64,000 nucleotides of DNA, from contig JAYWIR010000026.1 of NCBI GenBank assembly GCA_036172245.1, forward strand, positions 2,914,001 to 2,978,000. The letters are read 5' to 3'. The DNA is from Raillietiella orientalis. Taxonomy: Eukaryota. The position numbers and the translations under genes were made by a program. Under the pieces are notes generated by a model that was not told the DNA's origin, did not search any database, and saw only the letters and a list, made by a program, of their open reading frames with translations. Of the stretch, positions 11,270 through 57,660 are shown in pieces; positions within the stretch are counted from its first letter, which is position 1; each line of letters opens with the position of its first letter.

Positions 11270-12562
11270 CCTGCAATCATGTCGCTCCGTTGCTCCGCTG
11301 TTTAGTTGTCTTATGCGTCCCGCTGCTCACTCCTAAGGATGAGCAGTGAACAACGCAACGTGGAAGACCTCGAGCCTGTGTTTCAGGAACTTCCCGCAGC
11401 TGGAACGATGGCGACCACCTATGCGAGCCCCACGCCACTGACCAGGAGCTTCGCGGACGTGGCTGCATCTGCAGCCATACAAGGATGCCTTCCAGACAAG
11501 GCGGAGTTGCAAGCGTATGTAGCCCAGATCTACAAACCTGCGCTCCGCTATAATGTAAGTGGGGTAGGTAAGGCTGGGGAGGAGTTCGCGGACGAACTCT
11601 ACCGTGTTGGAGTGCGAGAGGAGCACCTGCTAGCCCTCATGCCTGTTCCAGCATTGGGCTATGTCAAGGTCTGATGCAAGCAGGCTGAGCTTGTGCAACG
11701 GCTCCTCCGCACTCCTTTGTCCATTTGCGGGAAAAAAGTTTTTCCCTTCGCGATGGACAAGTCCTTTGTCGTTGTTCTATCGGACGTAGAGCCGGAGATC
11801 AACAACAAACAGTTGATGGACGCCTTGGCGAATTTTGCCACCGTTAATGCGGTGCGGAGGAAGGGTAGTTTCTATAGGAAATCCTCCTCCGTCCACACAG
11901 GATTTGCTGAGGTTAGGGCTACCGTCCCTAACCGCCGCACGCTGGCTACCACGCTACAGTCAACGGCAAGGTCGTTCACCTGTGGTTCGTAGGCAAAACT
12001 CGCGCGTGCCAGCAACGCAACAACGAAGAGCATCGGGCTAAAGAATGCCCTTTTCCAAAGTGCCGCTATTGCAAGGAGTCTGGGCACGAAATCAGGCATT
12101 GCCCGGACATTAAGAAAAAAAAGGAGGCTGTAGACTCCGGCGCGCCAAAGAGAGCTCTGAGGAGACAGCAGCAGCCTCAAAAAAACGAGAAAACGCGCGA
12201 AACCCCTCAAAAACCAGGCAGGAACGTAGAGTCTCAAGAGGCTTTCTCTGCCGCAAAGCCCCGAAAGTGAAATCGGCCGGCAGAGAAGTCTATTAAAAAA
12301 GGGCACGAGGGCTCCGCGCGTGCCGTCACTGATCTCGTAGCGGAAAGAGGAGTTACCGTCCTGGGAATGGAGTCAGTGAAGCCAGATACACCGGGGACAC
12401 GCGAATAGCATTTACACGAAAATCGTCTCCTTGAGCCCCTTGTCCATTTCGGGGGCTTCGACAGGAAACCCCGAAAAGGCAATTGGAATTCCGGCGAGAA
12501 AAGCTGGGAAAAGCGGCGGCGAGTTCTTTGGAAACTCGCCGCATCATCCCCAACGCGGTAGC
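11270..12562 (+). pseudogene. Family D 5' region / ORF1 (N-terminal part with decayed zinc knuckles)
   Basis: RSFADVA, AELQAYVAQIYKPALRY, RTPLSICGKKVFP, KCRYCKESGHEI. Collinear with 19390-20630. Confidence 0.85.
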
Positions 12563-15330
12563 TTTTACCCTGTTTGAATTGCGAAGGGGAGAGTTTGTTT
12601 ACCTTAACACCTTCAGTATTCTCACTTTTTCTCACTTTTCTCAATGTTCTGGAATCATTTGAAAAATATGACAGTGCATTTAAGTTGGAGTCCCTCCACA
12701 GCTTCTGATTCCAATTTCTCTTTCCAGGAGTTCTTTCAATGTTTCCATAGCTGGCACATGGCTTATTCCTGTTCACATTTTGGCCCTCCTTTTCACCATG
12801 CTTTTAATAAAGAGGGCTATGGTAGGGCGGACCATCGGGTTGTATCGTGGTACGTTGCCATTTCCTTCGAACATTCCAACGGGAGTCTCCATCTTCCGCA
12901 AGGCCGGCAAGTCTATCACCTGCTTAAGACTAGTCCAGTCTTGGAGCAGAGATGGGCAGGTGAGTACGCGAAGTTGAATTTCTCTGGTTCCACAGGCATT
13001 GCACTTCTCCTCCTGCGGATATATGGTCCAGTGTTTAGTCCTAGCCGCTCGGAATGCCGCCGTGATAAAACATCAGCAGCTCATCCTGAGTTCCGGGTAG
13101 TAAGTCTCTCGTCCAGATCGAGGTTCACCTTGGGGCAACAGTATCGGATGGTGGCTGCAGACGTCCTCGTCCGGTTCCTTTATTATTGCTTCTCGTACGT
13201 TTTTCCTGGTTATTAGGCGCCAACAGCTGAATTCCTGATTGTTTCAGACCTCTCAATATTTGTGGGTGAATCTTCCCACTATCTATATAGTTAGCTGATA
13301 CAGCCTCATTTTTTGGCGATTGCTATTAAATGAGAACTGCTTGCACTCCTTTATGGTAATCTTTGGGTTCTCAGATATCCACTTCCTGGTGTAAGGAGGG
13401 ACGTGCAAAAATCAGAGGATAATCCTGGGAAGTTCGCCCTCCCAAATTTTCTTACTTCTAAGCACTATTTTGTGGTGCTGGGTGGCCATCAGTGACCGTT
13501 TCCGTATCCAAGTAGGGTCGATGTTTCTCCACTATCCTTGCTTGCATAGGAAGGACATCAGTCCTGTGGAATTTTGATCAACTTTGGGTTGGTTTTCTAC
13601 CCCGCATAAAGCCACTCGTCCCATTTGGTGACAAGATCCAGGAATCGTCGCACGTCCAGCAGGTGCACGGACAGTTTGAGCGACATCATCCCTGTCCAGC
13701 CTTTGTCTCGCGGTCTGCACAAGAGTTTCAGCATGACCCGCGGCTGAAACTTCCTCCACAGTATTCTCCGCTGCAGTTGTTCCACCTGCTGGCACGTGTC
13801 TTCGTGTACTCTACAAAAGGCTGCTCCGAAGAGCATCTTAAGAATGAGAACTCCGTTCCACAGGTTTGCCCTTTGCTTCAGGCAGAATTCGAATTGCACG
13901 TATTTTGCAGCCTCTTCTCTTGTTTTCATTAGGATTCCCTTCTACATTCCCTGCAAAGCCGAGACATCGCCGATGTGGACTTCCAGGTACTTGATATTAA
14001 CCAATGCTCGGAATCTTGCTTCCGCTAAGGCGGTAAGGTCCAGGATTCCGATGGGATTTCTGAGCGTTCATCTTGAAACCCAGTCCTCTTTCCATGGACT
14101 TGACGACACCGAAGAAAGAATACTGATCCATCTCGTTCTTCAGGAAGAAGGGCAGATCGTCCGCATACTCTAGGTAAGTCAGTCTGTCGTCAAGTCGTAT
14201 TCCTTCGAGACGGCCGCCACAGTGGATCAGTGAAAAAAACCGATTCCATATAAACTACGAACAGCATCGGACTAAGGTCGTCTGACGGATTCCCTTTTCC
14301 ATCATCATGTCTGCCGTATCATTTCTATTGATCGTCATCTTGCTGTACTGTCCTTCAAGATTCTTCTCCACGTAGTCGGCGAATTATTCTGGGTAGACCA
14401 GTTTTCTCAGAATCTTCATCAACCTTCCATGGCCCACGGAATGGTACGCATTCTCCATATCCGTGCATCCCACCACCAGGTTGTCGCCTCTGTAGCGACT
14501 GTGACCTAACGTTGCTTTGGCACACTTCACGTTCTCACACATGCTGCGTCCGGGCACCTCTCACGTCTGCATTGCACAAATTACGGATGGCACCGTCTTG
14601 CTTAAAAGGGTTAGCCCAGATAATGCTTAACCATTTGGCATCCGTGTTCATGATAAGGATGGGCCACCATTGGGTGACCTGAATCAGATCTCCTGCTTTG
14701 AGCAGCAGCCTCATGCGGATCTCGTGGAACGACTCGGGTAGCTTCCGTTCTTCTCGGATGTAAAGCGTGATCTCGTGGAACAACCGCAGGTAGGCGTTTA
14801 GTTACCGTTGATACTGCGAGATTGGCATGCAATCAGGGCCTGGAGCTTCGTTATTTCGAAGTCTAGCGAATGCTGCACTTCTTGGATGGAGATTTCTCCT
14901 TCTAGGCTTTCCTGCTGCTGAGGAGAGATTTGTTTTTGCAAAAATCTAAGAAAAACGTCCTGCTCGCTTCTTGACAATTCACGCTGTCGAAAATGGGAGT
15001 GTAGTGTTGATGGAAGGCCTCCGCTGTTTCTTCTAATGTATACCGAAACTGCTCTTTTTGCTGGATGCAGAAGATATCCGCTGAAAGATTTCCCTTCTCC
15101 TGCACGTCTACTTCTCCTTTTACGTTGCGGCAGACGTACTGGATCTGGTACTGGTCCCAGTGTTTGAAGAGTGAGCGATCTTGGATGATTTGCTCTCGGT
15201 ACGCTTGCTTCCTGATCTTCCTGTTTGCGAATTGCGCATTTCAGGACACGTGGATGGTTTCCTTCAATCTGTCCCAGTCCTCGACTCTGCGGATCGTTGT
15301 GTCGCGCAGGATCATCTCAAGAGTTCCTGG
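12563..15330 (-). mobile_element. Old, degenerate family B copy (ORF2 from end of APE to 3' UTR)
   Basis: EAAKYVQ...ANLWNGVL, YADD, TQWWPILIMNTDAKWL, ADIFCIQ, IRRVEDWDRLK and GMFEGNGNVP all match B ORF2, with many stops and frameshifts. Confidence 0.88.
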
Positions 15331-15439
15331 TAACAAAGAAGGGTTTGAAATCAGGAAGGCATACACATGTGTGCAGCGCTTGTGCCTACTTGCTTCCATG
15401 GCTGTCAACCCCTCAGATACCTCCTCTATTCCAACATCG

Positions 15440-15626
15440 ATGCGGTCGATCCATGGAGGCAAACATCGTTTTCGAGCGTCCCTGGATGCAGCTGCAGGAA
15501 GTCGTGGCGCTGCAAACCCTGGCTGGAACAGGAGGCGTAGCCGCAGGGAAAAAGAACAGGCGCCGAAGGCTGCAGGGAACGCCAGGTGCCTTGGCGGTCG
15601 CAGTCGACCTCCACAAGGCGTTCGAT
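15440..15626 (+). pseudogene. Family D RT fragment ending at KAFD
   Basis: GRSMEAN...TPGALAVAVDLHKAFD matches 32226-32405. Confidence 0.8.
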
Positions 15627-18600: not shown

Positions 18601-19275
18601 AAGCGGTCCCAATCCTGGAGTGTCCGCAGCCTGAAGCTCCGTATGAACGTGCGGAGATGTTCCGCCGCGTCCGAAAGCTTCAGATAGTCCCCTGGTAGAC
18701 GCCACGTTGACAAGGGGGAACACCAGTCGCGCGGATGGATCTCGAGAACTAGCGGGCGATGGTCGGACAGCTCGCACGGTAACTTGCCGCGCCTGCCCAA
18801 GCGAGGGCACAGGTGCTCGTCAAGAGACACGTGGTCGATGCTGTCCTCCATCCCCGGTGCACTGGCTAACAAATTGCAGGTGTGCACCGCCATGCACACC
18901 TCATTGACCAGGTCGCGTTCGAAATTCTGCCCATCTGGTTTCAAGCGAACGTTGAAATCGCCTGCAACCAGATGGGCATTCCGCACGCCTGCTTTGGTCA
19001 GCCAGTTGCGCCTTAGGGCAAGGAAAAAATCTTTCCTCGCCCTCCTGTTCATCAGGTCCGCGCCTCTCGGTGCGTACACGTTCTTCACGATCATATCGAT
19101 CGAGTAAGACCACCTGAGATTCAGCTGGCCGACACGATCGTGATCGTTGAACCGCACGCCCAGAGTAGCGGCCTCGACGGCTTGCCGAAGCAAGTAGGCA
19201 ACACCGCAACTTTTCGGTCTCCAACAAATGTACCATAGCCGCCCTCCGGAGATCCTTTCGATCTCTTGTCCTTCC
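15627..19275 (-). mobile_element. Family A Tx1-like element: almost complete ORF2 (APE-RT-CCHC, frameshifted) and 3' UTR
   Basis: NVYAP, AGDFN, IDHV, SDH; KAPGED, DLRKAFD, GIRQGDSLSP, YAEN, KYLG; CVRC...HLLVDC. 3' end is AATAAA...CCGGGTGAAAA. Confidence 0.92.
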
Positions 19276-20620
19276 ACAGTGCAGACGTGTTTACGCATCT
19301 CTACGCGTCCGCGATCGAGCATCTTTGTGCGTGGGTTTTCGCTCGCACTTGTGCGTTTCTTGGAAGTGGACGAAGCAGAGTTGTGCAGCATGGCCACTTC
19401 TAAGAATGATGTGGAGGAGAGAGCCTTAGAATCCAATTCAATTGGAATATAAGCGGCAGCATCCTCCGTGACGGTTTCCTCGCCTTCGGTGAGGAGTTAC
19501 GCCGCCGTCACCCCCCAGGGAGCAGGACACTGCGATGCGGAGTTGCAGGCTTATGTGGCATCAGACTACATGCCCGCCCTCCGTTATAAGGTCAGTGGGC
19601 CCCTCAACGGGAGGACCGGGCGCGAGCTCAACGATGAGCTCGTCCGGATCGGCGTTCGGGAGGAGGAGCTCCTTGCTATCATGCCTGCGGGCAGGATGGA
19701 ATACAACAAGATACAGTGTAAAAACGCGGCACATGTGCAGCGTCTTCGTACTCCGTTGTCCATCGGTGGCAAGGAAGTCCTGCCTTCCGTGATGGACGAC
19801 TCGTTTGTCGTCCAATTATGCGACGTCGAGACGGAAATCTCCGACCGCGATGTCGTAAGTGTGCTGGCAAAGTTCGCCACCGTGCACGCTCTGTGGAGGA
19901 GGCCAAATCCTCTTAAGGATTTCCCCTCTGTCCACATTGGACAAGCCTCCGCGCGGATCACCGTCGCGAACAGGCGTGTTGTGCCTGAGCAGCTGCAGGT
20001 GAACGGCACGGTCGTTCACCTGTGGTTTCTATGACAGACTCGCGCGTGCGAGCAGTGCAGCAAGGAGGGACACCCAATAAAGGAATGTCCCACCCCGAAA
20101 TGCCGCTATTGCAGAAAATCCGGGCACGAAATAAAAAAGTGCCCGGTCCTTGCAAAGAAAAGGGCAGCAGCGGAAGTTCGTCGCGTTCAAGAGACCAACG
20201 CACGAAAGGCCGCTGCCCCCAAGAAAAAGCAGTGTCCGCGAAGTCTTGGCGAAAGAGCAAAGCAATACCCGGCAATACAAAAGGCGTCCCCGCCCACAAC
20301 GCCTTAAAAGGGGGAAATCGCGGCTCGGAAACCAATTAAAAAGGGGCGCAAGGGTTCGACGCGTGCCGTGCCCACCCTCGCTGCCGAACAGGGAAACACG
20401 TCTCCAAGCCAGGAACAGGGAAATCTCCGAAGAACCTAGGTAGGAAAGGTAGGTGAGCAAGAAGATCGCCATAGGGAGAAGACTTCCAGCTCAAACCAGC
20501 TCTCCCTTCCCAAACCGGCAAACCCTCAATCCAACATAGGGATCCCTACGGCGGCTACGAAACCCGTAGTAAGCCGCGACGCGCCGCGCAAAAACACGCT
20601 GCATGCAGCCGCCCCTTTAA
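19276..20620 (+). pseudogene. Family D 5' UTR and ORF1 N-terminal part (ATG ~19390), interrupted by the B tandem
   Basis: RSYAAV, YMPALRY; CCHC knuckles CEQCSKEGHPIKEC and CRYCRKSGHEIKKC; Lys/Arg-rich tail. Confidence 0.88.
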
Positions 20621-20632
20621 CGACTCGGCAAG
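20621..20632 (+). repeat. B target site / TSD copy 1 (CGACTCGGCAAG)
   Basis: Sits between D ORF1 and the 3' tail of the truncated B copy. Confidence 0.9.
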
Positions 20633-21722
20633 TTTCCCCAAGTTCCACAAGGGGTGGGGTAAATTTATTTTTCAAAAATTTTTCTACAAAAACATTCACA
20701 CTACAGTCTTTTTCATACAATTTGCACTGTTTTTACCACTCTGAAGTCCATAAGTTCACAAGTTCTGCACTCATGGTGGGTTTCCTGCTCTTTGGTCCCG
20801 GGCGTCGTCTTCTATCCTCTTCAGGATGAATCTGTTCGTCCAGGCTTGGATTTTCCCACAGTTTCTAATGCCCATTTCCCTCTTCAGGGGCCCTTGTAGG
20901 ATCTCCATCGGTGGTGCGGTTCTCCAGGCTTTCCTCATTTTTCACCACCGCACAAGTATGGCGGTGATGAAGAGGGCGATGGACGTCCTCACCATGCGAT
21001 TCTAACAGGGAACATTACCATCCCCCTGAAACATCCCGGCGAGGATCTCCATTACGGATCTGTTCGTGAGTCCGATGGTCCTTTTCAGGATCAGCCAGTC
21101 ATGCAGCAATGTGGGACACGTCAAGACATTAAGTCTCGTGTCGTTGTCTCCACATGCCGCGCAGTGTCGATCTTCCCGTCTTCCGGTATAGTACTGCAAT
21201 CGGGACCCACTCTGGATTCCTCCATGATAAAACATCAGGAGGTCATCCTGGGTGCCCGGCGGCAGGTCACTCCTCAAGAGCATCGTGCCGATCGCTAGCA
21301 GGTTGAACCGGTCACTTCCGTAGCGATCGGCGGCTTCCTGGAGGGCACTGATGTCACGGTCTTCTTCCCGAATTAATCTTCGGAGGTTTGTTTTGAACAA
21401 CCTCGACCACGCGAAGTCGTTGTGGTTGATCCACACCTCGCGCATCATGTGGGTAAACCTTCCTAACATCATCTCTATATACCTAAGTATACGAGTGTGA
21501 TGTAGGTACACTCCCCGCCTCCACTCCTGGATTCGTTGTAGGGTAACTCTGAACCGCTGGTGGATCCAGATTCTCGTGTCCGGCGTGACAGGAAGCATCC
21601 AAGGGATCACCAGGATGGACTCGTCCTGCAAAGTTCCCTACTTCTCGGAACGATCTTGATTTTGTGCTTTCGCACCAGCCGTTGCTTCCTCGTCCAGGTT
21701 GGGTCGATTTTTTTCCATTCGC
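20633..21722 (-). mobile_element. 5'-truncated family B copy (ORF2 C-terminus + 3' UTR), tandem to the full-length copy
   Basis: ORF 21002..21631 is highly similar to the B ORF2 C-terminus (QDESILVIPW...LLMFYHGG...CPTLLHDW). Same 3' terminal sequence. Bounded by CGACTCGGCAAG (20621-20632) and CGACTCGGCAGG (21723-21734). Confidence 0.93.
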
Positions 21723-21734
21723 CGACTCGGCAGG
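21723..21734 (+). repeat. B target site / TSD copy 2 (CGACTCGGCAGG)
   Basis: Separates the two tandem B copies. Confidence 0.92.
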
Positions 21735-21868
21735 TTTCCCCAAGTCCCACAAGGGGTGGGGTAAGTTTATTTTTCTATAAAAATACAAAATTTACATTCG
21801 CACTCTCATTCACTCAATACAAACATTTTGCACTTGGGGGTCCTTGGGTTGCACTAGAGTTCTGCTTT

Positions 21869-24800
21869 TCAGGGGGGAATTCCAGCTGGATGGTCCCAGG
21901 CGTCGTCCTGGATCCTCTTCAGGATGAATCGGTACGTCCAGGCGTGGATCTTCCCGCAGTTCCTGATGCCGATTTCCCTCTTCAAGAGCCCTTGTAGGAT
22001 CTGCATCGGTGGTGCGGCTCTCCTGGCTTTCCTCATTTTCCACCACCGCACAAGTATGGCGGTGATGAAGAGAGCTATGGTCGTCCTCACCATGGGATTG
22101 TAACAGGGAACATTACCATCCCCATGAAACATCCCGGCGAGGATCTCCATAACGGACTTGTTGGTAAGTCCTATGATCCTTTCAGGATCAGCCAGTCATG
22201 CAGGAGTGTGGGACACGTCAAGACGTGAAGTCTCGTGTCGTCGTCTCCACATGCTGCGCAGTCTCGGTCTTCCCGTCTTCCTGTGAAGTGCTGCACTCGG
22301 GACCCACTCTGGATTCCTCCGTGATAAAACATCAGGAGGTCATCCTGGGTGCCCGGCGGAAGGTCACTCCTCCAGAGCGTCGTGCCGATCGCTAACAGGT
22401 TGAACCGTTCACTCCAGTAGCGTTCGGTGGCTTCCTGGAGGGCACTGGTGTCACGGTCGTTTTCTTGGATAAGCCTTCGGAGGTTTGTTCTGGTTACCCT
22501 CGACCATGCGAAGTCGTTGTGGTTGAACCACACTTCGTGGGTCCTGTGGGTAAACCTTCCTAACATCATCTCTGTATACCGAAGTATACGTGTTTGATGT
22601 AGGTAGCCTCCTCGCCTCCACTCCTGGATTTGCAGTAGGGTAACTCTGGACCGCTGGTAGATCCAGCTTCTCGTGTCCGGCGGGACAGGAAGCAACCAAG
22701 GGATCACCAGGATGGACTCGTCCTGCCAGAGTTCCCTGCTTCGCGGCACGATCTTGATTTGGTGCTTCCGCACCAGCCGTTGCTTCCTCGTCCAGAAGGG
22801 GTCGATTTTGTTCCATTTGCCTGCTCGGCCTAGCAGCGCAGTCATCAGGCCTTTCGAGTTGTTAAGCAACAACGCGTAGGCCCTGTGCGCCGCATACGGC
22901 CAGTCATCCCAGTAAGTGGCCATGTCCAGGATGTGTCGGGTATCCATGATTTCCATGGAATGTGCAAGCGACTTCATCCCGGAACCGCCTTCTTCCCTGG
23001 GACGACACAGGGGTTTCAGTCTTACTCTTGGACGATAGTGGCCCCAGAGTGTTTTTCTTTGCAGCTTGTCGAACTCCCTAGTAGTGTTCTTGTTCATCCT
23101 CGCGAAGGCCGCCCCGAAGAGCACTTTCGGAAGGAGTACTCCGTTCCATATGTTGGCATTTCGCTTCATCCCAAGGTCCGTTCGGGTGTACTTGGCTGCT
23201 TCCTTGGCCGTTTTCCCCAGGATTTCCTTCCACAGCAGCTTCGACGCAGAGCCGTCGCCGATGTAGACTCCCAGGTACTTGGCCGTGTCCACCGTACGGA
23301 ATCCACTACCCGGTAGAGTGGAGAGATCCAGTATTCCGACGGGCGAAAGCTGGCTCTTCTGGGAATTGATTTTTAAGCCCAAGCCCTGTTCCATCTGGTC
23401 CACCACATCCAGAAACGCACGCTGATTTTTCTCTCCCTTGATGAAGAAGAGTAGATCATCGGCGTATGCCAGATGGGTAAGACGCTGGCTATCGATGGTA
23501 ATCCCGCTTAGTCGTCCGCTCTTCTCGATAAAGGACGACAACGCCTCCATATAGATGACGAACAGCATCGGACTTTGCGAGTCGCCCTGTCGGACTCCTC
23601 GTTCCATCCTGATTGCTGCCGTCTCCTGGCCGTTGATCTTGATCCAGCAGTACTGGTTCTGGAGTACCGCCCTCACGAAGTTGCTGAAGTGTTCCGGAAG
23701 CCCTAGCTTCTCCAGAACCTTCAGCAGCATCCCATGGTCGATGGAGTCGAAGGCCTTCTCCATGTCAGTGAACACCAGCACCAGGTTCTCGCCGACGTAT
23801 CGACTGAGTCCAACAGTGGCCTGGGCACACTTGACATTGTCCGACATGTGTCGTCCTGGGACTGCACATGTCTGGACCGGAGAGATCAGCCTCGACATGA
23901 CCTTGTCTAAGCGGTTGGACCAGATCTTCGCCAACCACTTGGCATCGGAGTTTAGAATCGAGATTGGCCTCCATTGGGCGATCTGGGTAGAGTCGCCTCC
24001 TTTCGGCAGCAATCTCATCCGACTCTCGTAGAAGGACCGAGGTAGTCTGCCTTCTTCCCGGATGCAGAGGGTCAACTGGTGGAACAAGCGCAGGTAGGCG
24101 TGCAGGTACCGCTGATAGTGCGTGATGGGTACACTGTCAGGGCCCGCTACCACGTCCTTGCGAAGTTGCCCAAACGCAGTCTTCACCTCTTCTTCGGAGA
24201 ACTCCTCCTCCAGTCTGTTCCGCTGGAGGTCGTCGGTCCTCTTCTCGAGATAGCTCAAGAAGGCCTGTTGACTAGAGCGACACAGCTGTTGTCGCCTGAA
24301 GTGTTTCGTGTAATGCCTGTGAAAGGCATCCACGATGTCCTCAGACGACTGTCGCTTTTGGCCGTCGTACTGGATGCAGAAGATATCTGTTGCAAGATTT
24401 CTCTTCTCCAGCACGCCGACTTCCCCTTTTATGTTATTGAGGACGTACCGACTCTCGTACTGATCGAAGTACTTTGAGAGGGAGCGATCTTGGATGTTCA
24501 GCTCCCGGTACGCCTCTTGCCTCAAGCGCCTATCCCCGAACTGCATGTTCGCAAACAGGTGTATCCTGTGTTTCAGGCTGTCCCAGTCGGCGACTCTTCG
24601 GAGTGTTGTTGCCCTCAGAATCGCCTCCAGGACAGCCTGATGTCCGGGATGGGTTTCGAACCAGGCGGGCATGCTGATGAGCGCCGCCCTGGTGCCTTGC
24701 CTCCGTCGAGGATTCTCCGTTCTTAGGGAAAACCGCACCAGGGGGTGATCGGACACCGTAGTCATAGTGTCGCGAAAACCCTGGATGCGGTTCCCAAGTT

Positions 24801-25385
24801 CGGTGCTGTGCAGGACGTGATCGATTGGCTTGTGGCTTGCTGTTCGCCAGACCAGTCCGAACTCCTCGGATAGCCGTCGATACGCCGTCCTTCCTCTGGC
24901 GTCTTCCGAATAAATGATCTCATCCAAGATGTTGAGATCGCCAGCAACTATCACGACGTCCTTAGGGGCGACCTTTTGCCGGAGTGTTGCATGCAGCGCC
25001 TCCGCACAACGATGTTTTAGCCTGTGCGGCCCGTACACGTTCACCAGGATAAGGTGAACAGTCGCGGACCAGGCCAGTCGCATGCCGATGATTCGTCCGG
25101 GTTGGGGACAGAACACTTCCAGAATAGTGGGGGCTAAGTTGTTCTTTATTAGCACCGCCACACCCTTCGTGTTCCGTTCTCCTTCGTTGACGAACATCTG
25201 CCCGTTGAATCGCCGTTCTATTCGCTGGCTTATCTCGAGACCCATCCTGTGGGTCTCCTGCAGGCACACGATGTCTTGTTGTGCGTGGTCCGCACAATCC
25301 TTCTTCTTTTTCCCTGGTGGACCACACCGTTTACGTTCCAGGAGGCGATGTTTATCCTCCTGGCGGTCGATAGGGAAGAGGCCAT
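21869..25385 (-). CDS. Family B ORF2: AP-endonuclease + reverse transcriptase + C-terminal CCHC, split by two single-base frameshifts (~25275, ~22178)
   Basis: APE motifs IASWNVNG, LQETH, AGDLN, IDHVL, SDH. RT motifs PGPD-like VAGPD, WRPISILNSDAK, DMEKAFD, GVRQGD, YADD, KYLG. Zinc finger CAAC...HVLTC. Three ORF pieces (25230..25490, 22171..25269, 21869..22150) join into one protein. Confidence 0.9.
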
Positions 25386-25398
25386 AAAAGGGGAAGAC

Positions 25399-27186
25399 CT
25401 ATTTTTTGGCCTTCCTGAGCTTCTTCTGTCTGTGAGAGCGTGCTCTTCCAGACAATGAAGAAGCAGCGGGCTTCTCGCTGCCGGCGTCACTCTCCGTACC
25501 TGTGAGGTCGGTAATTTCCGCCTCCTCCGTAGAGTGTTCCGCCTGCGCGATCAATTTTCGAGATAGCGCCTCTATTTCGACTTTGGCGCAAAAGTTCGCC
25601 TTCACGTCGAGAAGCTGTTCCTCTAACTTCTCGCGTTCAGCGACCTCCACCACCTGGTTGATGTTCTCTTGTGCAGTGCAGATCTTCTGCAAGATTTTCT
25701 CTTGCTGAGGACCGCTCTGCACCTCCATGATCTCCTCCGCCAGTGTTGCCAACTCCTCCGTAGTCTGCAGAGCCTCCTGCGACACTTTAGTGGCTTCCTG
25801 TCTCTCTTCCTTCGCGCCTTCCTGCGCTACCTCCATCTTCTCGCCTTCCTGCTCTGCTGCTTCCAGGATTTGAAGAGTTCCTTGCTCCTTGACGAGCATC
25901 CTCCTCTTTCCCTTCTTTCCCACTTCTATGAAGCCGTCCGCCGACACCGGGACAGCTTCTTTCACTTTTTTCTGCCTTCCTGCCTTCTGAGGCTGTTCGG
26001 CCTCCTTGATGTTTCTCTCTCTTACGGGAGAGAGACCTCGAATCCTTCTGCAGTTTTCAAACTCCGGACAGCTCCATTTCGCATGTCCGTGTTTCTTGCA
26101 GAAGGAGCACACCTCCGGATGCGGGCAGTTTCGGACTTGATGTCCTACTTTGCCGCAGCGGAAACAACGACACGTTGGGCAAGAGCCGGGCCTGTGACCG
26201 AACTGCTTGCACCCGGTGCAGAATACCGGTTGTTGCCGGTAACGCACATTCACTCCCTGGGATTGTTCGTCAATAACGGCCAATCCAGGGATGACCGCTC
26301 CCTCCCTCAACTTCATCTTGGCGATCATGTCGCCAGAAAATATGTTTCCAGAGAAGTTCTGGAAATCAAGGTCCAGAACTTCCCCAAACTGCTCCAAGTA
26401 ATTCCACACCGCTAGTTGCGGTGTGAGGATGAAGATGCCGTTTAAAAAGACAGTTGTGTATGGCATCTCGCCAATACCACAAACCATCCGTCCTTGTATA
26501 TTGATCCCCTTCTGGATCAATCGCTCTCTAATGTTTTCACAGTCTGTAAAGACTGTGAACCCGTTGTTTGATGGAATGATCGCCTGAATGCGATCAAAGT
26601 CTATGTCCATCTTGTCGAGGGACAAATAGACCTCCCTGATGTTATTAAATTTTATTAGCCCCGTCTTGAAGATAATGGGCTTTACGTTGGGGCCTATTTC
26701 CACTATTGGTCGGTCCACTTTTAGTACTTTTCCGCTAAGCGGCTTACCGAATTTCCTAGGTGGGTGGACACTCGCCTGTCCAGCCGCCACCGAAGCATAA
26801 GAAAAGGGCTGCGGCGCCGCAGCCGAACAAGATGGCGTCGCTCCCTGCACCGCGTGGACGCCCGCGGGTCCCGCCTGGGACGCCACCGCCGCGGGCGCAA
26901 ACCTCGACGTTGCCGCCGTTACCGCCGCGGGCGGCACTCTCGGCATCGCCGCCTCAGGGGCGACCTTCCCCGCCGCGGGCACGATCCTCGGCGTCGCCGC
27001 CGCGGGCACGACCTCCGCCGTCGTCGCCGCGGGCACGACCCTTGGCATCGCCGCCGCCGGCGCAGCAAAGCCCGCCGCGGGCGCGATCCTCGGCATGCCT
27101 GCCACCGCCTCGCCGTTGCCACACGTTACCTCCATGGCTTCCATGGGGGACGACGGTCTCTCCACTCCTCTTCTAGGTGCCTGCAT
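25399..27186 (-). CDS. Family B ORF1, gag-like nucleic-acid-binding protein (~595 aa from first ATG)
   Basis: Uninterrupted ORF with an Ala/Pro-rich N-terminus, an SYASVA motif, three CCHC knuckles (CTGCKQFGHRPGSC, CFRCGKVGHQVRNC, CSFCKKHGHAKWSC) and a Glu-rich coiled-coil-like C-terminus. Start chosen as the first ATG (27186). Confidence 0.88.
   Translation of the reverse strand: MQAPRRGVERPSSPMEAMEVTCGNGEAVAGMPRIAPAAGFAAPAAAMPRVVPAATTAEVVPAAATPRIVPAAGKVAPEAAMPRVPPAAVTAATSRFAPAAVASQAGPAGVHAVQGATPSCSAAAPQPFSYASVAAGQASVHPPRKFGKPLSGKVLKVDRPIVEIGPNVKPIIFKTGLIKFNNIREVYLSLDKMDIDFDRIQAIIPSNNGFTVFTDCENIRERLIQKGINIQGRMVCGIGEMPYTTVFLNGIFILTPQLAVWNYLEQFGEVLDLDFQNFSGNIFSGDMIAKMKLREGAVIPGLAVIDEQSQGVNVRYRQQPVFCTGCKQFGHRPGSCPTCRCFRCGKVGHQVRNCPHPEVCSFCKKHGHAKWSCPEFENCRRIRGLSPVRERNIKEAEQPQKAGRQKKVKEAVPVSADGFIEVGKKGKRRMLVKEQGTLQILEAAEQEGEKMEVAQEGAKEERQEATKVSQEALQTTEELATLAEEIMEVQSGPQQEKILQKICTAQENINQVVEVAEREKLEEQLLDVKANFCAKVEIEALSRKLIAQAEHSTEEAEITDLTGTESDAGSEKPAASSLSGRARSHRQKKLRKAKK
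26880..27120 (-). repeat. GC-rich coding tandem repeat in B ORF1 (AAxPRxxPAA-type units)
   Basis: Repeated gccgcgggc(a/g)cga.. units encoding AMPRIAPAA / AMPRVVPAA / ATPRIVPAA / AMPRVPPAA. Confidence 0.8.
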
Positions 27187-27360
27187 CCTGGCAGCTGGTC
27201 TTGCTGCACGGGACCACTGCAGGTCTTTTGCCGCGATCTCCTCGCCGCTTCTTTTTTTTTTGTTTCTTCTGGAAAACTTCCCCTTTCCGGGCACACACGA
27301 GCACAATGAACTGATTAAGTTGTCAAGCGCACAATACTTCGAGCCGCGGAGCAAGTTCAC

Positions 27361-27372
27361 CGACTCGGCAGG
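27361..27372 (+). repeat. B target site / TSD copy 3 (CGACTCGGCAGG)
   Basis: Abuts the 5' end of full-length B. D ORF1 resumes after it. Confidence 0.92.
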
Positions 27373-28840
27373 AGCGGAGCGATCTCCCGACTGTCAACAA
27401 GGTGACTCCGTTGCCGCCTTTTGAAGGAGTAGCAAAAGCAACGCCCCCAGAGAACGCAGCGAAAATCCCGGAGGTTTTCGCAACTACTGTCGCGGAAGCT
27501 TTCGAAAATCGCGAAGTCGAATGGAAGGTTGTGGAGAGGAGGAAAAAAAAATCTCCAAAAAAAGCTTTGCAACATCCATCTGTGAGCTCTTCCAAAGGAA
27601 AAAGCAGTCGCGGGAATACGAAAACACGTTCGGCTTGTGCCTCTTCCAAGGAAAAAGCCAGCGCCTTCAACGCGTGCAAGTCCGCTTCTGTGACCGCGGA
27701 GAAGACCATTCCGGTGCAATCGGAAGGATGCAAGCGCACGTCGATCGTGCGAGCATCAGATTCCCCAAAGGAGTCCGATAGCGCCTCTGAACGACGCGTT
27801 ACTCGCGCTGGAGCGAGCGCCCGCAGGGCTGAAGCCCTGAGGCGTGACACACTCGCCGCGGAACGGCGAGTGCTCACATCGGAACCCACAGGTTCTGCAC
27901 CCGGGGAGGGGCACCCGATTACGTGCAGCACAGTTAAGGCCGGTTGCGACCGCGCCCTCCAGCCCGTCGTGCTGCTTACTGCCCGCTCGCCGGGTGAGGC
28001 GAGCACCACGGCCTCGCTTTCCCAGCCGTAAAGAGGGCAATCGCGTCTTCTCGTCGTGTTGCCGTAACGCCTTGGAAAGTCAACGGGCTCCAACATGAGG
28101 AGAAGATGCGACTAGTGGCTGATGCTCTGCGCGCTTTCGACTTGACGCTCCTGCAGGAGATTCACAGCATCACCGAAGAGCAGGCTGCCGAAATCGAACG
28201 GCGCGCGGGCGGAACGCTACTTTATAGGTGCGACGTTGCACGTACGTGCGGCGTCGCTTTCCTCGTGCGAGGAACTTTGGTGGGAGCGGTGCGCAGCGCT
28301 CGTTTCGACACGGAAGGCCAAGTGGGACAGCTTGTACTCAAGTGGTCCTACTCGATCGACCTTGTCGTAACCAACGTGTACGCCCCGAGCGGTGCTGGAC
28401 GATGGGCCGAAAGGATTGAGTTCTCCGGTACCCTTCAAAGTCAGTGGCTCACTCGATCTCACCCTACTGTTGCCCATCTCATTGCGGGGGAGTTTAACGT
28501 CCACCTGCTTTCCGAGAATACATCCCACAAAAGGGAAGAGTTGCTAGCGGAAGAGATGTGCGCGTCCGTGAACGCGTGCAAATTGTTCGCTAGCGACCCT
28601 GTTATGGCAGGAACGCCGGACCACGTATACCTTGATGAACACTTGCTCTCTCGAGTGGGTCGGAGAGGTCCCGTGCCGTCCGTGCTTTCAGACCACAACA
28701 GTTTCGAGTTCGAGTTGCTTCCGCTAGGCAAGGGGCCTCCAAACTGTTTTTGGAGGATGCCGGTAGACTGGCTAAGCCACCCAGAGGCGGCTGAGCATCT
28801 TCGTCTGTACCTCCTTGGCTTTGTTATAAGTGAGCTCGAT
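27373..28840 (+). pseudogene. Continuation of family D: ORF1 C-terminus (to 28031) and APE domain (~28050-28840)
   Basis: Low-complexity ORF 27402..28031, then WKVNG, LLQEIH, NVYAP, AGEFN, DHV, SDH. Cut off by an antisense A 3' end. Confidence 0.88.
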
Positions 28841-31640
28841 TTTCACCCGGTTGCGTGGGGGCGTTTATTCTTTAGGATAAAACAAACGTTGGTGGCTGAC
28901 CAGGTGGTCCGGCGACGCACTGGTATACAAAATTAAGCCTGCCGGGTCACCGGTTCGTATTCCGGCACGGTCCATCACGACAGCAGAGGGGCCAAGGACA
29001 AAACAAAAAATTAAACAAAAAAAAAAAATATATAATATCAAGATCTGGGGAGCACGGGAAGGGATCACAGTCTGCCGTGGGGCCGTTACATTTTTAGCAG
29101 GATGATGGCAATCTGTTTTTGGATTGTTGAATCCAGATGGGTCCATCCTGTCGCCGTCCGCATAAATTCGGCTGCGCACTGGACGGTACCCTTATCGCGA
29201 TGTCCTTTCGTTGCCTTGCTATTTGCAGCGACGACCCCGCGAAAGCAGCACAGAGCTCCTAACGAGGCCGATGGCCTAAGAGCGTCGCCTAAGAGGCCTA
29301 AGAGGGATCTAACTGCATCTCTGGGGCTGCCGCAGGGGATACCGATTGCCGGGTCAAAACGGTTCCAAAGGTCCGAAGAGCCACACAATCCAAAAGGACG
29401 TGAGTAAGGGACTCCCTTTCTCCACACCTCGCACAGTTGCGGCTCACCGCTCCCCAGGTCCAATGGTGTCTTCGGGCGTTGCAGGGGAGTCCCCAATGCA
29501 GCAACAATAGCGCCGATCCCTGCCATTTTAAGGGGAGGGTAAAGGTGTTCATCAGCACCGGGGGCCACTTTAATTGTTCCCACGGAACATTTAGCAGCTC
29601 GCTTCAGCGCAGAAGTCCAAATGGGTGGTAATCCGGGACGCAGTATTGCAGAGAATTCCCGTTTTCCATTCCCGATCTTTTTCTGCGTAACGGAGATTTT
29701 AGCATGCACATCCGATTTCGCAGCAGTGTTGCCATCCAAATGTTCCGCGAGCGAAAACAGCATTGCAATGAGGGGAGTTTTTCTTGCCCACGCTCGTTTT
29801 TGGGGGTTCTCCAGGAACTCTCGGAGCGTCAGGCGGTTATTACGGGCGAAGAATTGTCTCTACCCTTCTTGCGTGCGTTGCTGGTAGCTTCTTTCCCACG
29901 TCTGAACCGTTTTGTGCAGCCATGCAGGAACGTGAACATGGATACAGCAGAGCCATCCTGCGTTCTTCCTCATCAGGTCAGCCTCTCTCCGCAGCTGCAA
30001 CTCGCAGTGACCGACTTGGCGGCGACGACAAAGCTCTAGTAAGGATGACAGTCCCACCTTGCCTGTATAGTTTTCGATGAGGAGACGTGCGGGCTCGCAC
30101 CAGCTGCTATTCCAATGTTTCGCCACTAGAACGACTAAGCGAAACAGGAGCTGGAGCTTCAGCCGCTCTAGCGTCAGGAGCAGTGACCGCCGTCCCGACG
30201 CAGAGCGCTCAAGTCCTCAAGCGGAAATCGCACCCTCCCATTACCTCACAGGGCAATCCTTAGGAGGTCCTTCGTCCGCTTTTTAGTCTCTATGGTGGGA
30301 AGGCAAACAAAAAGTAGTGAACGGAGAAGGGGAGCCACGAATGCGTTTCACACCGCGGCTCGTTCCACCAGGAAACACCTGCGGTCTTTGAACGGGCCGA
30401 TCGCCATCTCCACCTTCTGAAGGCAGCTGTACCACGCATCCGAAGGAAGAAAATCCTCCATCTGTACGCCGAGGTAGTTCAAGTACCTCACCGTGGGGAT
30501 CATCAAACGGACCCAGTCCTGCTGCCCGGCCCACGGCGCACTAACTGGCATCATGGACGACTTCGCCCTGTTCACCGTAAGTCCGGTTCCCCGATGCATC
30601 AGGTCGAAAAACTCCTCGACCGCCGAAGCTGGGGTGGACATAGGGAGCAGCTGCAGTAGGTCTTCCGCATATGCTAACACCGCGGGCGTAACGAAATAGT
30701 CGCGCGGCAGGTGCGCTAGAGTTTCCCTGTACGCTCTCAGTACCAACTCGAAGTAGGTACCGAAGAGCAAGGGACTCAGGCTGTCTCCCTGCCGTATGCC
30801 GCGTCGCACCGGTACGCCGTGCACGGTGTATGCACTGAAAAAATCTCGATGAGCGCGTTGCGCTAGCAGGATCGCAGGTATGTCAGCAAAGAGACCGGGA
30901 AACCCAAGCGTTCCAGGAGCTCCAGAAGGACCCTCTGGTCGACACAGTCGAATGCTTTATGCAAATCGACTGCGACTGCGAGGGCTCCCTCCCTCCCAAC
31001 CATCCCGGATGTCCGGCTGCCCATCCTGACCCTTTCCTGTTGGAGCGCGAGAAAGGTGCTGGCGAGGAACAGGTTGGCATCCTTGCTACGCCCGGGAACA
31101 GCATATGTCTGCTCCGGGCTAATGAAGCTTTCCGCTAACCGCCTCAGGCGTTCAGCCCACAATTTCGCCAGCAGCTTGGCGTCCGCGTTTATCATGGTAA
31201 TCGGCCGACAGTTGCTCATGCTCCGAAGGTATCCTCCCTTAGGGAGGAGACGCACCTCTGCCGAACGAAACGAGACGGGGACGTCGCCCGTTTCGCGGAT
31301 CAGCAAGGTGAGTTTCTTTACCAGAAGTGTGAGCTCTGCCACGAAACATTGAAAAAATTCCGCTGGCAGGCCGTCCTACCCTGGAGCCTTCCGCCTCTTG
31401 AGCTTTTCGATGGCCGAGATGATCTCGTTCATCGTGAAAGGATCGTCGAGGGTCTTAATATTTTCCTCTTTGATCGCCGGAGTGCCTTCCAGAAGAAGTC
31501 GCGAGACATGCCGTTCCGGTGGAGCGCGCGCCTACAGGGAGGAGTAGAATTTTTTTAATAAGCCTTTCACCTGGGCGGGCGTGGAGTGCTCCAAGCCCTG
31601 GTCGTCCAGTAAGCTGGCCGACCCGGATTGCCATGCCTGC
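28841..31640 (-). mobile_element. 5'-truncated family A copy (RT, CCHC, 3' UTR), degenerate
   Basis: LLDDQG, LLPKGG, DLHKAFD, GIRQGDSLSP, YAED, CARC...HVLLDC. 3' UTR is homologous to 15627-15870. Confidence 0.9.
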
Positions 31641-31644
31641 CTCT

Positions 31645-32011
31645 CGGACGCCTCCGTGGGCGCAAACCTCGACGTTGCCGACGCCGCCGTCGCGGGCGCG
31701 ACCCTTGGCATCGCCGCCGCCACCTCACCGTTGCCATACGTTACCTTCATCTGCATGGGGGACGTTTGCCTCTCCTCTCCTGCTGATGCCTGCATCCTGG
31801 TGGCTGGTACTGCCGCTGAGGAAATTTGCGAGTCTTCCGTCGTGATCTCCTCAGCGCTTCTTTTGTAGATGTATCAGCAGATCCTACGCAGCACACTCTT
31901 GTCCACACTCACTTTCTTCTGCACACTTTCCCTCTCCGGGCACACACGATCACAATTAACAGATTAACCGTAGTCGTGCGCGCAAAACAATGAACCTCGA
32001 AGCCAGGTCAC
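31645..32011 (-). mobile_element. 5' end (UTR + ORF1 start) of another family B copy
   Basis: Homologous to 26890-27360 (VTYGNGEVAAAMPRVAP...ATSRFAP; ccgggcacacacga). Confidence 0.85.
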
Positions 32012-32023
32012 CGACTCGGCAAG
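32012..32023 (+). repeat. B target site at a second locus (CGACTCGGCAAG)
   Basis: Abuts the 5' end of another B copy. Followed by D ORF1 sequence homologous to 27373 onward (TPLPPFxGVA...EWKVVERRK). Confidence 0.88.
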
Positions 32024-34587
32024 AGAGGAGCAATCTCCCGACTGCCAAGATGACTCCGCTGCCTCCTTTTAAAGGCGTGGCGCAAGCGAAGCCACTAGAG
32101 GCGGTAGCGAAAACTTCAGAGGTTTCCGTGACGAAAGTCGCGGAAGCGTCCGAAAATCGTGACGGCGAATGGAAGGTTGTGGAGAGGAGAAAAGAAATAT
32201 CTCTGTGTTACTGGACGCTGTTACTGGGCGGTCCATGGACGCCAACCTCTTGTTCATCCGCACATGGCTGCAATTGCAGCATCGCGTGGCGATGGATCGT
32301 CGTGCAGAAGCGACGCCTTCGATCTCTCACCGGCGGAGGAGCGGGTCGCAAAGGGAAACTCCGGGAGCCTTGGCGGTTGCAGTCGATTTGCACAAAGCTT
32401 TTGATTGCGTGAACAAAAGGCTTCTCCTTGAGCTTTTGGAACGTCTGGGTTTCCCGGCATCCCTGTAGGAGTAATCGCGCTCCTGCTGGCGCCACGCGAT
32501 TACATTCATTGTTTTCAGTGGCTGTCGCGTGTACGTCGTGCCTCTACGGCGAGGAATTAGGCAGGGCGATAGCTTTAGCTCGCTGCTCTTTTGCAATTAT
32601 TTTGAATTGGTGCTGGAGGCTTGCATGTTGACGCTAGCCAACCTGCCTAGCTTCTGTCCGGGTACGCAGGCCGTGGCAGCCTATGCTGACGACCTGCTTC
32701 TTCTGTTGCCCATGTCCATCCCGGGAGCGTCGCTTGAATATTTCTTTGAGCTGATCCGTCGTGGTGAGGGCGTGAGCATCAACAGGAGCAAGTGTATGGC
32801 TGTTCCCGTGGGAGCGACGTGTGAAGGGCAGTTCGACTGGATCCGCCTCGGAATCCTCACGGGCAGGTACCTGAGGTGCCTTGGCGTGCCGTTGGGTGAC
32901 TTTTGCATCTCAGAAGCGTGCTCAAACTGCCTTCGGGAGGAAGATCGTGCACTTGTTCCGTTCTCAGTAGGCGAGTTCGTCTTGCCGGTACGGGCCAGCA
33001 TCTGGAACATCGTTGCCCCCCTTCTCCGTCTTCTGTTTGTTGTTTGTCCACCCCCTAGGAAGTCCAAGTCTGGGAGCAGCGCCTCCTCCGCAAAGCGTTG
33101 TGTGGCGCTGCAAGATCCCGCGTAAGACTGAAAGACTTGGTGGTGCCGCGTCAGGATGCAGGCTTGGGCATCCTAGACTTAAAAAGCATCGAGATCCAGG
33201 TGCAGTTTCGTATGCTGCGGTTCTGGGCCAAGCTGTGGTGTACGCCGTTGTGCTAACTCGCACGCCTTATACTAAGGCGCTGCACGGGAAGCGAGGAACT
33301 GCTTTCATTGTCTCCTCACTTTCGGCACACCAGAATAGGGTTTGGCTTCCCGCTGAGGCAGCTGTCCTTACTGCTGGAAGTCCAATATTGGATCTCCTGC
33401 CGCCCCAGGAACATTAATGGATGGCGGCAGGAATCTTTTTCATCGTGGGAAGCTTCCGAAGATCTTGGTCGCCTTCGACTTCTCCTCAGTCATCCATAAG
33501 ACGAAGTCATGCAGGACAAGAAGAAGTCAGATCGTTTGGCCGCCACACCACTCGCCTCAGCGCTTTTTGCCCTCAGAACAAGCAACGAGAATTGCCTACC
33601 GGCGAAATGGGAGTTCTCCTGCTCAATAGCGGGAGTCAGTAAGCTCCTCGGCTGCTGGACGACAAAGGATCTGGTGGAAACTGCCACTCCTCGTAATCAA
33701 GCAAAGGGCCTGCTTCGGTGGAGTGAGCATTTAAGTGTACCCCCCGAAGAGATAGTGGTTCCCCCCATTTGTTTGGACAATTCCGTGTTCCCCTTAAAGT
33801 GGAAACAAGATGTGCTGCTCTTTTTACACTGGGGATTCCACTGTAACCGGCAGCGAAGCATCGTTTCCGGGGGAGCTGCTTTGCCAAACTCTTTGAGGTG
33901 CGGAGTGATCGAGTCTTTTCCGCACCCCTTGCAGGACTGCGGTGACCTCCGTGAACTGTTGCGAAGGCTGATTTTAGCCATCCTGCCGCAGGGAGGCTCT
34001 GCCATTGATGTGCCGCGACGCTTCTTCAGCAGGAATGGATTTTCGGTTGGGGCGATTGTCGCAACCATGTGTTGAGTTCGCGCCATCGTGAATGCCCGCT
34101 ACGCCCTGTATTTGTCAGTGAAGCGAAGGGAGGCTCACCGGTTTGCAGCAAAATCCATGCAAATGGTTGCTAGGTGGTTTCATCTTCGTTACGAGGTGAA
34201 AAAGGACATCGCCGGCATCCATCGCCTGTTTACCGATTCTTAAGAACGGCGTAATCCGGTGACTCCCGCGACCTCTCACCCACCCATATCCCATTCCCGT
34301 TCGCTCCGTCGAATTCACGCTGCTAATACTTACATCCCGGTTCCTTATCGAGCGATCCCAAGGACCGTTGTCAGGACCTCACCCATTCATTGTTTTTCTT
34401 TTGTTTTTGTTTGTTTTCCCCTATCCCACATCATTCCGATTCTGTTATTCCGTCCTGCGTGCCAGGAAAATTTCCTTGATTTCTGTAGAGTCGTCGATTG
34501 GGAGCCTGATTTGGAACTGGTTTATTTTATATAATTTTTCGTTTATTATTACATGGAATAAACATCTTAGTGTGACCTGATGAGAAA
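32024..34587 (+). mobile_element. Family D element: ORF1 C-terminal stub fused (internal deletion ~32195) to RT, CCHC and 3' UTR
   Basis: DLHKAFD, GIRQGDS, AYADD, CLG; LRC...HPLQDC. T-rich 3' UTR, AATAAA at 34557-34562 and terminal CCTGATGAGAAA. Confidence 0.87.
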
Positions 34588-53965: not shown

Positions 53966-53984
53966 GTGCTCTGCTTAAAAGTAC

Positions 53985-57366: not shown

Positions 57367-57660
57367 TTTTCCATGCCCTAATTGCGGTGAAATGAATTTA
57401 TTTTCTGCTTTTATCTATACAAGGTTAATGGTCAATGTCACTGTTTTTCACTTTCAGGGTTGATTTTCGGCATCAAGCCAGTGAATTTCAGTGGGGATAT
57501 CACTCACTTGAAAATGCTCCGAAATTCTTTGCAGTATATAATAGTAATTCCTAAAACGAATGAGTCCACACTTCCTGATCGAAATTTCCTTCTTCACTAG
57601 TCCATTGAGGATGGTTCTTGAGGATGGATTAGTTCAACATTTTCCTTCGCCTCCTTATGC
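57367..57660 (-). mobile_element. Old family B 3' end
   Basis: ttcctgatcgaaatttccttcttcactagtccattgaggat aligns to B 21960-22000. AATAAA (57397-57402, minus) lies at nearly the same distance from the terminus as in B. Confidence 0.7.

Follow-up and report, generated by a model that had tools for sequence, protein, structure and literature searches.

Introduction

Most known sequence-specific long interspersed nuclear elements (LINEs) aim at multicopy genes of their host, at simple repeats or at DNA transposons, and such elements are natural models for programmable RNA-templated DNA insertion. The closest described systems belong to the Tx1 clade, described as found in animals in the available portion of Kojima 2015 (PMC4494074). 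According to the same portion, Tx1 families target the piggyBac-type Tx1D, Mariner-N4_AMi and Harbinger elements, and two families target long terminal repeat (LTR) retrotransposons; tandem Tx1 copies sandwiching a target-site duplication are explained by sequential insertion, and target-derived 5' extensions reveal a master copy residing in the target. The insertion of Tx1 into Tx1d is cited as a case of one transposable element preferring another in the available text of Cosby et al. 2019 (PMC6719617). Here we analyse a 64-kb stretch of DNA from Raillietiella orientalis (contig JAYWIR010000026.1, positions 2,914,001 to 2,978,000), hereafter the window, to which alone all junction counts refer. 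It contains a LINE, called B, copies of which lie at a 12-bp sequence within the first open reading frame (ORF1) of another LINE, called D.

A LINE homing into the ORF1 of another LINE is a variant of the published homing of Tx1 elements into DNA transposons and LTR retrotransposons, and is not new in its general idea. A sequence-only reading of this DNA had recognised no described family with such a target. This held for the literature searched, where no LINE with the ORF1 of another LINE as its specific target was found (family reports of transposon databases fall outside that coverage), whereas homing into other kinds of transposon is already in print in the portion of PMC4494074 cited above.

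Results

Two antisense B copies are bounded by a 12-mer in ORF1 of D

The window is a eukaryotic nest of non-LTR retrotransposons that encode an apurinic/apyrimidinic endonuclease (APE). In the D copy of interest, D1, ORF1 begins with the ATG at 19390 and keeps a single frame as far as 20632, albeit with four in-frame stops; it is then interrupted by two tandem copies of B, B1 and B2, both on the minus strand and bounded by the 12-mer 5'-CGACTCGGCARG. After in silico removal of 20633-27372, the ORF1 frame resumed through 27373-28031 and was followed by the APE domain of ORF2. The tandem antisense arrangement, the 12-mer before, between and after the copies, and the rejoining of D ORF1 with its APE upon excision had all been proposed by the sequence-only reading; all were recovered here, with exact 12-mer matches at 20621, 21723 and 27361.

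Scanning the plus strand of the window revealed a fourth exact 12-mer at 32012. When one mismatch was allowed, the number of matches remained 4 (all exact) against an expectation of 0.57, and no shuffle out of 100 gave as many. Matches with three mismatches were uninformative (95 in the window for 92 expected), and none of the 13 window sites with two mismatches carried a B end. That the B inserts are bounded by the 12-mer is thereby confirmed as real and far beyond chance. The 3' ends of B1 and B2 (...GGGGAAA) directly adjoin the 12-mer. The three copies of the duplication differ as CAAG, CAGG and CAGG, and the copy at 32012, probably imported (see below), reads CAAG. The order of the three suggests, as the simplest history, that B1 entered, that the right-hand copy mutated, and that B2 then entered and duplicated this right-hand copy.

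B2 is a full-length element. Its ORF1, on the minus strand, has its ATG at 27186 and its TAG at 25399-25401; three CX2CX4HX4C (CCHC) knuckles lie within it, at 26220, 26166 and 26109. The zf-CCHC Pfam score of 20.0 bits lies just below the cut-off of 20.8, and HIV nucleocapsid was matched with an E-value of 4e-4. A gag-like ORF1 with CCHC knuckles is the type found in Tx1 and in plant L1. ORF2 is a 1075-codon frame on the same strand (25398-22174), in which Exo_endo_phos (E 1.9e-13, residues 40-218) precedes the reverse transcriptase (RT) domain RVT_1 (E 5e-35, residues 466-712), thus APE followed by RT. The C-terminal tail of ORF2 lies in a different frame and extends to about 21872, and the 3' end of the element reads ...AATAAA...GGGGAAA. 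Both ORFs, 5.2 kb in all, are without premature stop. B is not dependent on D proteins for its mobility, as B2 has an ORF1, an APE and an RT of its own in long open frames. The term 'hyperparasite', used in the sequence-only reading, is for this reason overstated: B is autonomous, and D is its landing site, not the source of its machinery.

D1 is a single element covering 19266-34591, and the placing of its end at 28840 in that reading was wrong. The D1 ends at 19266 and 34591 interrupt the minus-strand APE gene of a D-like element, E1, whose peptide continues from ...ITAAHIRE into IERISGG... once D1 is left out, and the site shows a TCTC duplication. The continuity of this gene and the duplication together fix the 5' boundary of D1 at 19266 and indicate one element. 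The 3' end of D1 has the form ...AATAAACATC...GATGAGAAA. Besides B1 and B2, D1 holds a third, chimeric insert (28840-32203), after which its RT resumes at about 32204; roughly 700 bp of the APE-RT linker are missing there relative to E1. The ORF1 linker region of E1 itself (about 37260-37000) reads straight through without a B insert.

Diverged B lineages adjoin ORF1 of diverged D lineages

Two further D-type ORF1 sequences in the window, D' and D'', end at the junction with a B-lineage element, B' and B'' respectively (Table 1). The assignment of the short B'' fragment relies on its ORF2 tail peptide (...ILNGLVKKEISIRKCG...), which matches the tails of B1, B2 and B'. All four B-lineage 3' ends (at 20633, 21735, 12563 and 57367) adjoin D-lineage ORF1 or the duplication, always in antisense, and both 5' ends adjoin the 12-mer followed by D ORF1 sequence. 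Within the window, insertion is thus target-specific at 4/4 3' ends and 2/2 5' ends. Conversely, the first halves of the D-type ORF1 (D1, D' and D'') are interrupted by an antisense B-lineage 3' end in 3/3 cases.

The distance from a well-aligned ORF1 anchor to the junction is 263 nt in D1, 236 nt in D' and 250 nt in D''. The D' site has a good local match to that of D1 (CCCCTTTAACGACTCGGCAAG vs CCCCAACGCGGTAGC), and both reading frames correspond just upstream. This correspondence indicates colinear DNA homology, and the colinear alignment was preferred for this reason; an alignment of the linker anchored on a W-basic peptide motif was rejected, as it conflicts with the colinear one. The D'' junction possibly lies about 20 nt further on than the D1 site. 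From these alignments, the B' and B'' junctions appear to lie in the same short ORF1 linker segment as the 12-mer site; we do not claim the same base.

Identities at the first, second and third codon positions were 0.63/0.70/0.43 for B2 versus B' and 0.62/0.71/0.43 for D1 versus D', and the overall nucleotide identity over aligned codons was 59% for both pairs. This pattern indicates that B2 and B', like D1 and D', diverged as functional elements, and hence that the insertions are independent. In diverged D lineages, diverged B lineages are found in this same part of ORF1, and the association between the two is therefore old. B' is truncated at about residue 234 of ORF2, where an N-terminal fragment of a D-like RT directly adjoins it, and D' lacks about 2.3 kb beside the insertion, comprising the remainder of ORF1, the APE and the linker.

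The fourth 12-mer lies in a probably chimeric insert

The 12-mer at 32012 and the D-like sequence that follows it (to 32203) are 79% identical to 27361-27555 of D1. The B-like 5' end at 32011 has the same start base beside the 12-mer as B2, and in both cases D ORF1 C-terminal sequence lies beyond. We considered this block as a second resident D copy ('D2') and ruled this out: the D1 ends flank one interrupted E1 APE gene and therefore represent one insertion event. The segment 28840-32203 is probably a chimeric cDNA in which the RT and 3' untranslated region (UTR) of a D-like element, E2, are joined to a B-like 5' end and its upstream D flank, the latter being imported. Its origin looks like 5' transduction or template switching, combined with a deletion of the target. 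The block at 32012 is nonetheless a record of another B-lineage element at the 12-mer site of another D copy.

Within the same insert, 28840-29040 was considered as a tRNA-derived short interspersed nuclear element and dropped; the tRNA and Rfam scans were empty. An A-rich low-complexity stretch at 28992-29043 had a very high contig depth in sequencing runs X2 and X3. Since these runs are otherwise almost devoid of the 64-kb sequence, this depth reflects a simple repeat and not the element.

Relationships of B and D

Among the solved structures of the Protein Data Bank, which contains no RT of the RTE, CR1, I or Jockey groups, human L1 ORF2p was the best match of B2 ORF2 (E 4e-48), R2 proteins following at E 2e-25. 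A protein search with B ORF2 returned 156 relatives, almost all unnamed, of which the best was 27% identical. From the ESM Atlas, only generic RT/APE clusters were recovered, and a metagenome scan with B ORF2 yielded 7 loci, all at 32% identity or less. Neither the B 3' junction, looked for in genome_contigs, nor the B 3' end, looked for in viral_contigs, had any exact match. A quick IQ-TREE tree was built from 68 rows, namely 8 window elements (several stitched from fragments, and one short window row left out) and 60 unnamed database relatives. It placed (B2, B') as sister to (D1 RT, D3, E1, E2, F1) with a Shimodaira-Hasegawa-like approximate likelihood ratio test (SH-aLRT) value of 96, so that the nearest sampled relatives of B are its targets. 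B and D/E elements also share the form of their 3' terminus (AATAAA, a short stem and GGG(T)GAAA). B appears to have an L1-group affinity and may belong to the Tx1 clade.

Sequencing runs

X1 (Logan contigs) was the only sequencing run containing the stretch, with 0.37 of its words, and no RNA run was listed as containing it. From this run 493 contigs were placed, covering all 30 bins, and 30 of the 493 were at least 99% identical to the stretch. Summed contig depth at a likeness of at least 80% was about 10-13 over the D flanks and 60-96 over B2 (6-8x), declining towards the B 5' end. It follows that B is present in many copies, which are often truncated at the 5' end. In one contig, 20615 is joined to 21719 and 20389-20553 is also absent, which would fit a different D copy, or an allele, carrying a single B at this site. 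Another joint, between 20027 and 28019, leaves out 7991 nt, the sequence between not being given, and might represent an empty D copy. The X1 contigs are short and yielded no flank sequence, and none of them spans the B1-B2 tandem. All the X1 contigs at 22179 (three) and 25285 (four) differ from B2 by a single inserted base, and these differences may be private changes of the B2 copy or consensus errors of the assembly.

Other elements of the window

The nesting chain extends over 11280-38100. D' (ORF1 and an RT fragment at 15388-15626) contains B' and E1; E1 (15626-19265, then from 34592 onwards) is interrupted in its APE by D1 and in its ORF1 by F1 (from 35424); D1 in turn contains B1, B2 and the E2 chimera. 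The minus-strand RT fragments F1 (36088-37028) and F2 (53964-54926) are 82% identical, the closest pair in the window besides B1/B2. A further LINE family is represented by an 864-codon open frame on the minus strand at 61333-63927 (RVT_1, E 3.5e-29), which the quick tree places on a long branch beside the clade of B and D. The tRNA and Rfam scans of the window gave no match, and 14 further ORFs of the window had only weak RT/APE matches, no host gene being recognised among them.

Three minus-strand 3' ends, at 28840, 38709 and 15626, belong to E-type (D-like) elements and have the form ...CCGGGTGA(A/G)AA. Two of these elements, E2 and E3, lie in diverged D-type elements of the plus strand, one in each, and adjoin the same base immediately behind the APE domain. 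These hosts are 68% identical (28328-29398 vs 38198-39262), with codon-position identities of 0.60/0.72/0.50 in the APE parts. The third end adjoins RT motif A (KAFD) of a D-like fragment. The flanks of all three ends are TCGAT or TCAT, and the E type may represent a further lineage that favours a particular site within D. The D/E-type 3' termini at 34555-34591, 55100-55134, 58120-58154 and 35424-35460 consist of AATAAA, a short stem and GGGTGA(A/G)AA. Their flanks differ (TCTCCCGG, TCTAGCG, GGTAGTAGG and CATTGGAAC), so that D/E-type elements as a whole are not strictly site-specific.

Table 1. Coordinates of the B and D elements and of associated features in the 64-kb window
Feature	Position	Strand	Remarks
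D' ORF1	11306..12562	+	63% nucleotide identity to D1 ORF1; ends at B' junction
B', diverged decayed B-lineage element, 5'-truncated	12563..15387	-	62% nucleotide, 47% amino acid identity to B2 ORF2
D1 5' end: 5' UTR and first part of ORF1	19266..20620	+	ATG 19390; RRM-like region; two CCHC knuckles at 20047 and 20101
Target-site duplication, copy 1	20621..20632	+	CGACTCGGCAAG; 12-mer scan
B1, 5'-truncated B copy	20633..21722	-	1090 bp; ORF2 C-terminal part and 3' UTR
Target-site duplication, copy 2	21723..21734	+	CGACTCGGCAGG; 12-mer scan
B2, full-length B	21735..27360	-	5626 bp
Target-site duplication, copy 3	27361..27372	+	CGACTCGGCAGG; 12-mer scan
D1 ORF1, C-terminal part	27373..28031	+	in frame with 19390-20632
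D1 ORF2, APE domain	28079..28839 (about)	+	
E2, 5'-truncated D-like element	28840..31648	-	RT and 3' UTR; just after D1 APE
B-like 5' end	31649..32011	-	363 bp; about 70% identical to B2 5' end
Fourth 12-mer and D-like ORF1 C-terminal sequence	32012..32203	+	CGACTCGGCAAG, then 180 bp
D1 RT, C-terminal part, and 3' UTR	32204..34591	+	
D'' ORF1	56315..57366	+	about 60% nucleotide identity to D1 ORF1; ends at B'' junction
B'', 3' fragment of a third B lineage	57367..57636	-	ORF2 C-terminal tail and 3' end

Discussion

A LINE that probably targets ORF1 of its sister LINE

We consider it probable that B is an autonomous APE-type LINE of the L1/Tx1 group whose insertion, in a single orientation, is sequence-specific for the C-terminal linker of the gag-like ORF1 of its sister LINE D. 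In the proposed mechanism, the B endonuclease would nick the sense strand of D just after 5'-CGACTCGGCARG, and the freed 3'-OH would prime reverse transcription at the 3' end of the B RNA (...GGGGAAA), as the precise 3' junctions suggest. The other strand would be cut 12 nt upstream, giving the 12-bp duplication that is seen in the sequence. Such a duplication would regenerate the site beside the downstream D sequence, so that a second element could enter and form the B1-B2 tandem, presumably B1 first and B2 afterwards. D copies would offer a multicopy safe landing site, each B insertion inactivating one of them.

Several points weigh against this interpretation. The evidence is confined to a single 64-kb window; for comparison, the genome-wide rule for specificity in the available portion of Kojima 2015 is that >20% of flanks be of one kind (PMC4494074). 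The claim of the sequence-only reading that B targets D ORF1 is upheld by the 12-bp duplication and by the reoccupation of the same segment; it is weakened by the depth of run X1, which indicates that D1-like sequence of at least 80% likeness does not flank the majority of other B copies. The flanks of those copies could be diverged D copies, like D' and D'', or unrelated DNA. B' and B'' are each a single copy, their flanks (AACGCGGTAGC and GACTTCTGAGG) lack the 12-mer, and the base-level homology of their sites is uncertain, as the alignment anchored on the W-basic motif places these sites elsewhere in the linker. The fourth 12-mer is inside a chimeric insert and hence is not a resident target at this place. 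The 3' hairpin of the B lineage has a weak consensus (-5.3 kcal/mol) and is convincing only in B1 and B2 (z -2.0), being weak in B' and B''. Finally, the specificity of the B endonuclease is an inference.

Alternative explanations

The alternative that survives best, although we regard it as unlikely, is that targeting is real and guided by the flank: a B RNA reading through into the flanking D sequence would pair, by homology, with D target DNA that is nicked or breathing, the nuclease itself being only weakly specific. Read-through RNA guidance has been proposed for R1 and R2. Here, the 12-mer (32012) and 180 nt of upstream D sequence (32024-32203) are attached to the B-like 5' end at 31649-32011, so that transcripts including the D flank exist and are reverse-transcribed, and the departure of the B' and B'' sites from the 12-mer would be easily accommodated by such a guide. 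This evidence for flanks in transcripts, however, concerns the 5' side only, whereas all four 3' junctions are base-exact, and copies with 3' read-through were not observed. The 13 two-mismatch sites without a B end do not separate this model from nuclease specificity.

It is very unlikely that a single ancient chance insertion of B into D was followed by copying of the D::B composite, through segmental duplication or retrotransposition of D, with no targeting at all. The equal divergence of D1-D' and B2-B' (59% nucleotide identity over aligned codons) is what copying of a composite would give, and duplicated nests do exist, for example F1 and F2. But identity at third codon positions is 0.43, against 0.62-0.71 at first and second positions, a pattern that a dead composite would not keep. 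The ORFs of B2 are open whereas D1 ORF1 has four stops, which makes B2 younger than its host copy, and the B1-B2 tandem in any case requires two insertions at one site.

Could this tandem instead result from one insertion, the 12-mer and the 1.1-kb 3' part of B having been duplicated locally through slippage or unequal exchange at CTCGGC? The topology is exactly that expected. The 5' junction of B1 shows a CTCGGC microhomology between B-internal sequence and target, and the B-internal sequence at the truncation point resembles the 12-mer. The 3' parts of B1 and B2, however, are only 85.7% identical over about 1.1 kb, and over 286 aligned codons the proportion of differences was 0.219 at synonymous sites (pS) and 0.083 at nonsynonymous sites (pN), a 2.6-fold excess (Fisher p=1.1e-6). 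This excess indicates divergence under purifying selection, and thus different source elements. Together with the absence of premature stops from the 5.2 kb of B2 ORFs, which neutral decay after a duplication does not fit, it indicates that much of the divergence predates insertion and argues against a local duplication. Such a duplication would also leave the junctions at 32012, 12563 and 57367 unexplained, and we hold it to be highly improbable. The view of the sequence-only reading that B1 and B2 are separate insertion events is thus supported by their codon-level differences.

Least probable of all is an assembly artefact arising from mis-joined repeats: no contig spans the whole stretch, and all placed contigs differ from B2 by the single-base indels at 22179 and 25285, but run X1 covers all 30 bins with 30/493 contigs at 99% identity or more, the B1 and B2 3' ends share no long identical words, and neither the frame-exact restoration of ORF1 nor the matching duplications are expected of a mis-join.

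Implications

If sequence-specific insertion of B into D is correct, it would show that one retrotransposon can make a niche of another, that APE-type endonucleases are able to follow, in their specificity, a target that moves, and that dense LINE nests are partly directed rather than random. The pairs B/D, B'/D' and B''/D'' would then form a natural endonuclease/target series for mapping the determinants of specificity. As a more tentative extension, which we would not yet favour, B and D may have co-diversified in one host, one branch turning into a specialist for the ORF1 of the other and the B lineages tracking a drifting target (CGACTCGGCAAG, AACGCGGTAGC, GACTTCTGAGG) in an arms race, and the E lineage perhaps doing likewise at its site after the APE. 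The target would in that case lie in a fast-evolving linker, where escape is cheap.

Comparison with known systems

The comparisons below with described families refer to the portions of the cited papers that were available. Tx1L and Tx2L of Xenopus laevis, which insert into Tx1D and Tx2D, resemble B as APE-type, possibly autonomous LINEs with a multicopy transposon as target, and their specificity is attributed to the endonuclease in the cited papers (PMC4494074, PMC6719617). Their target is a non-autonomous piggyBac-type DNA transposon, whereas that of B is the coding ORF1 of a LINE, and on the quick tree the target family of B is its sister lineage.

The crocodilian Tx1 families also prefer transposons: Tx1-Mar inserts into Mariner-N4_AMi, Tx1-9_AMi into Harbinger, Tx1-8_Crp and Tx1-4_AMi into LTR retrotransposons, and SINEU-3 tandems are described (PMC4494074). 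Their transposon preference, their tandems with a duplication and their target-derived 5' extensions all have counterparts in B (PMC4494074). They differ from B in their targets, which are DNA transposons and LTR retrotransposons instead of a non-LTR ORF1, and in the length of the duplication, 16 bp against 12 bp (PMC4494074).

R1 and R2 (28S ribosomal DNA), Keno (U2), Mutsu (5S) and Kibi/Koshi (microsatellites) share with B a precise target-primed reverse transcription in a single orientation at a multicopy target, and 5'-truncated copies and tandem or double insertions occur among them as they do in B (PMC4640811, PMC3747384). The targets of these elements are multicopy genes of the host or simple repeats that host selection keeps constant, whereas the target of B is a selfish, fast-evolving element.

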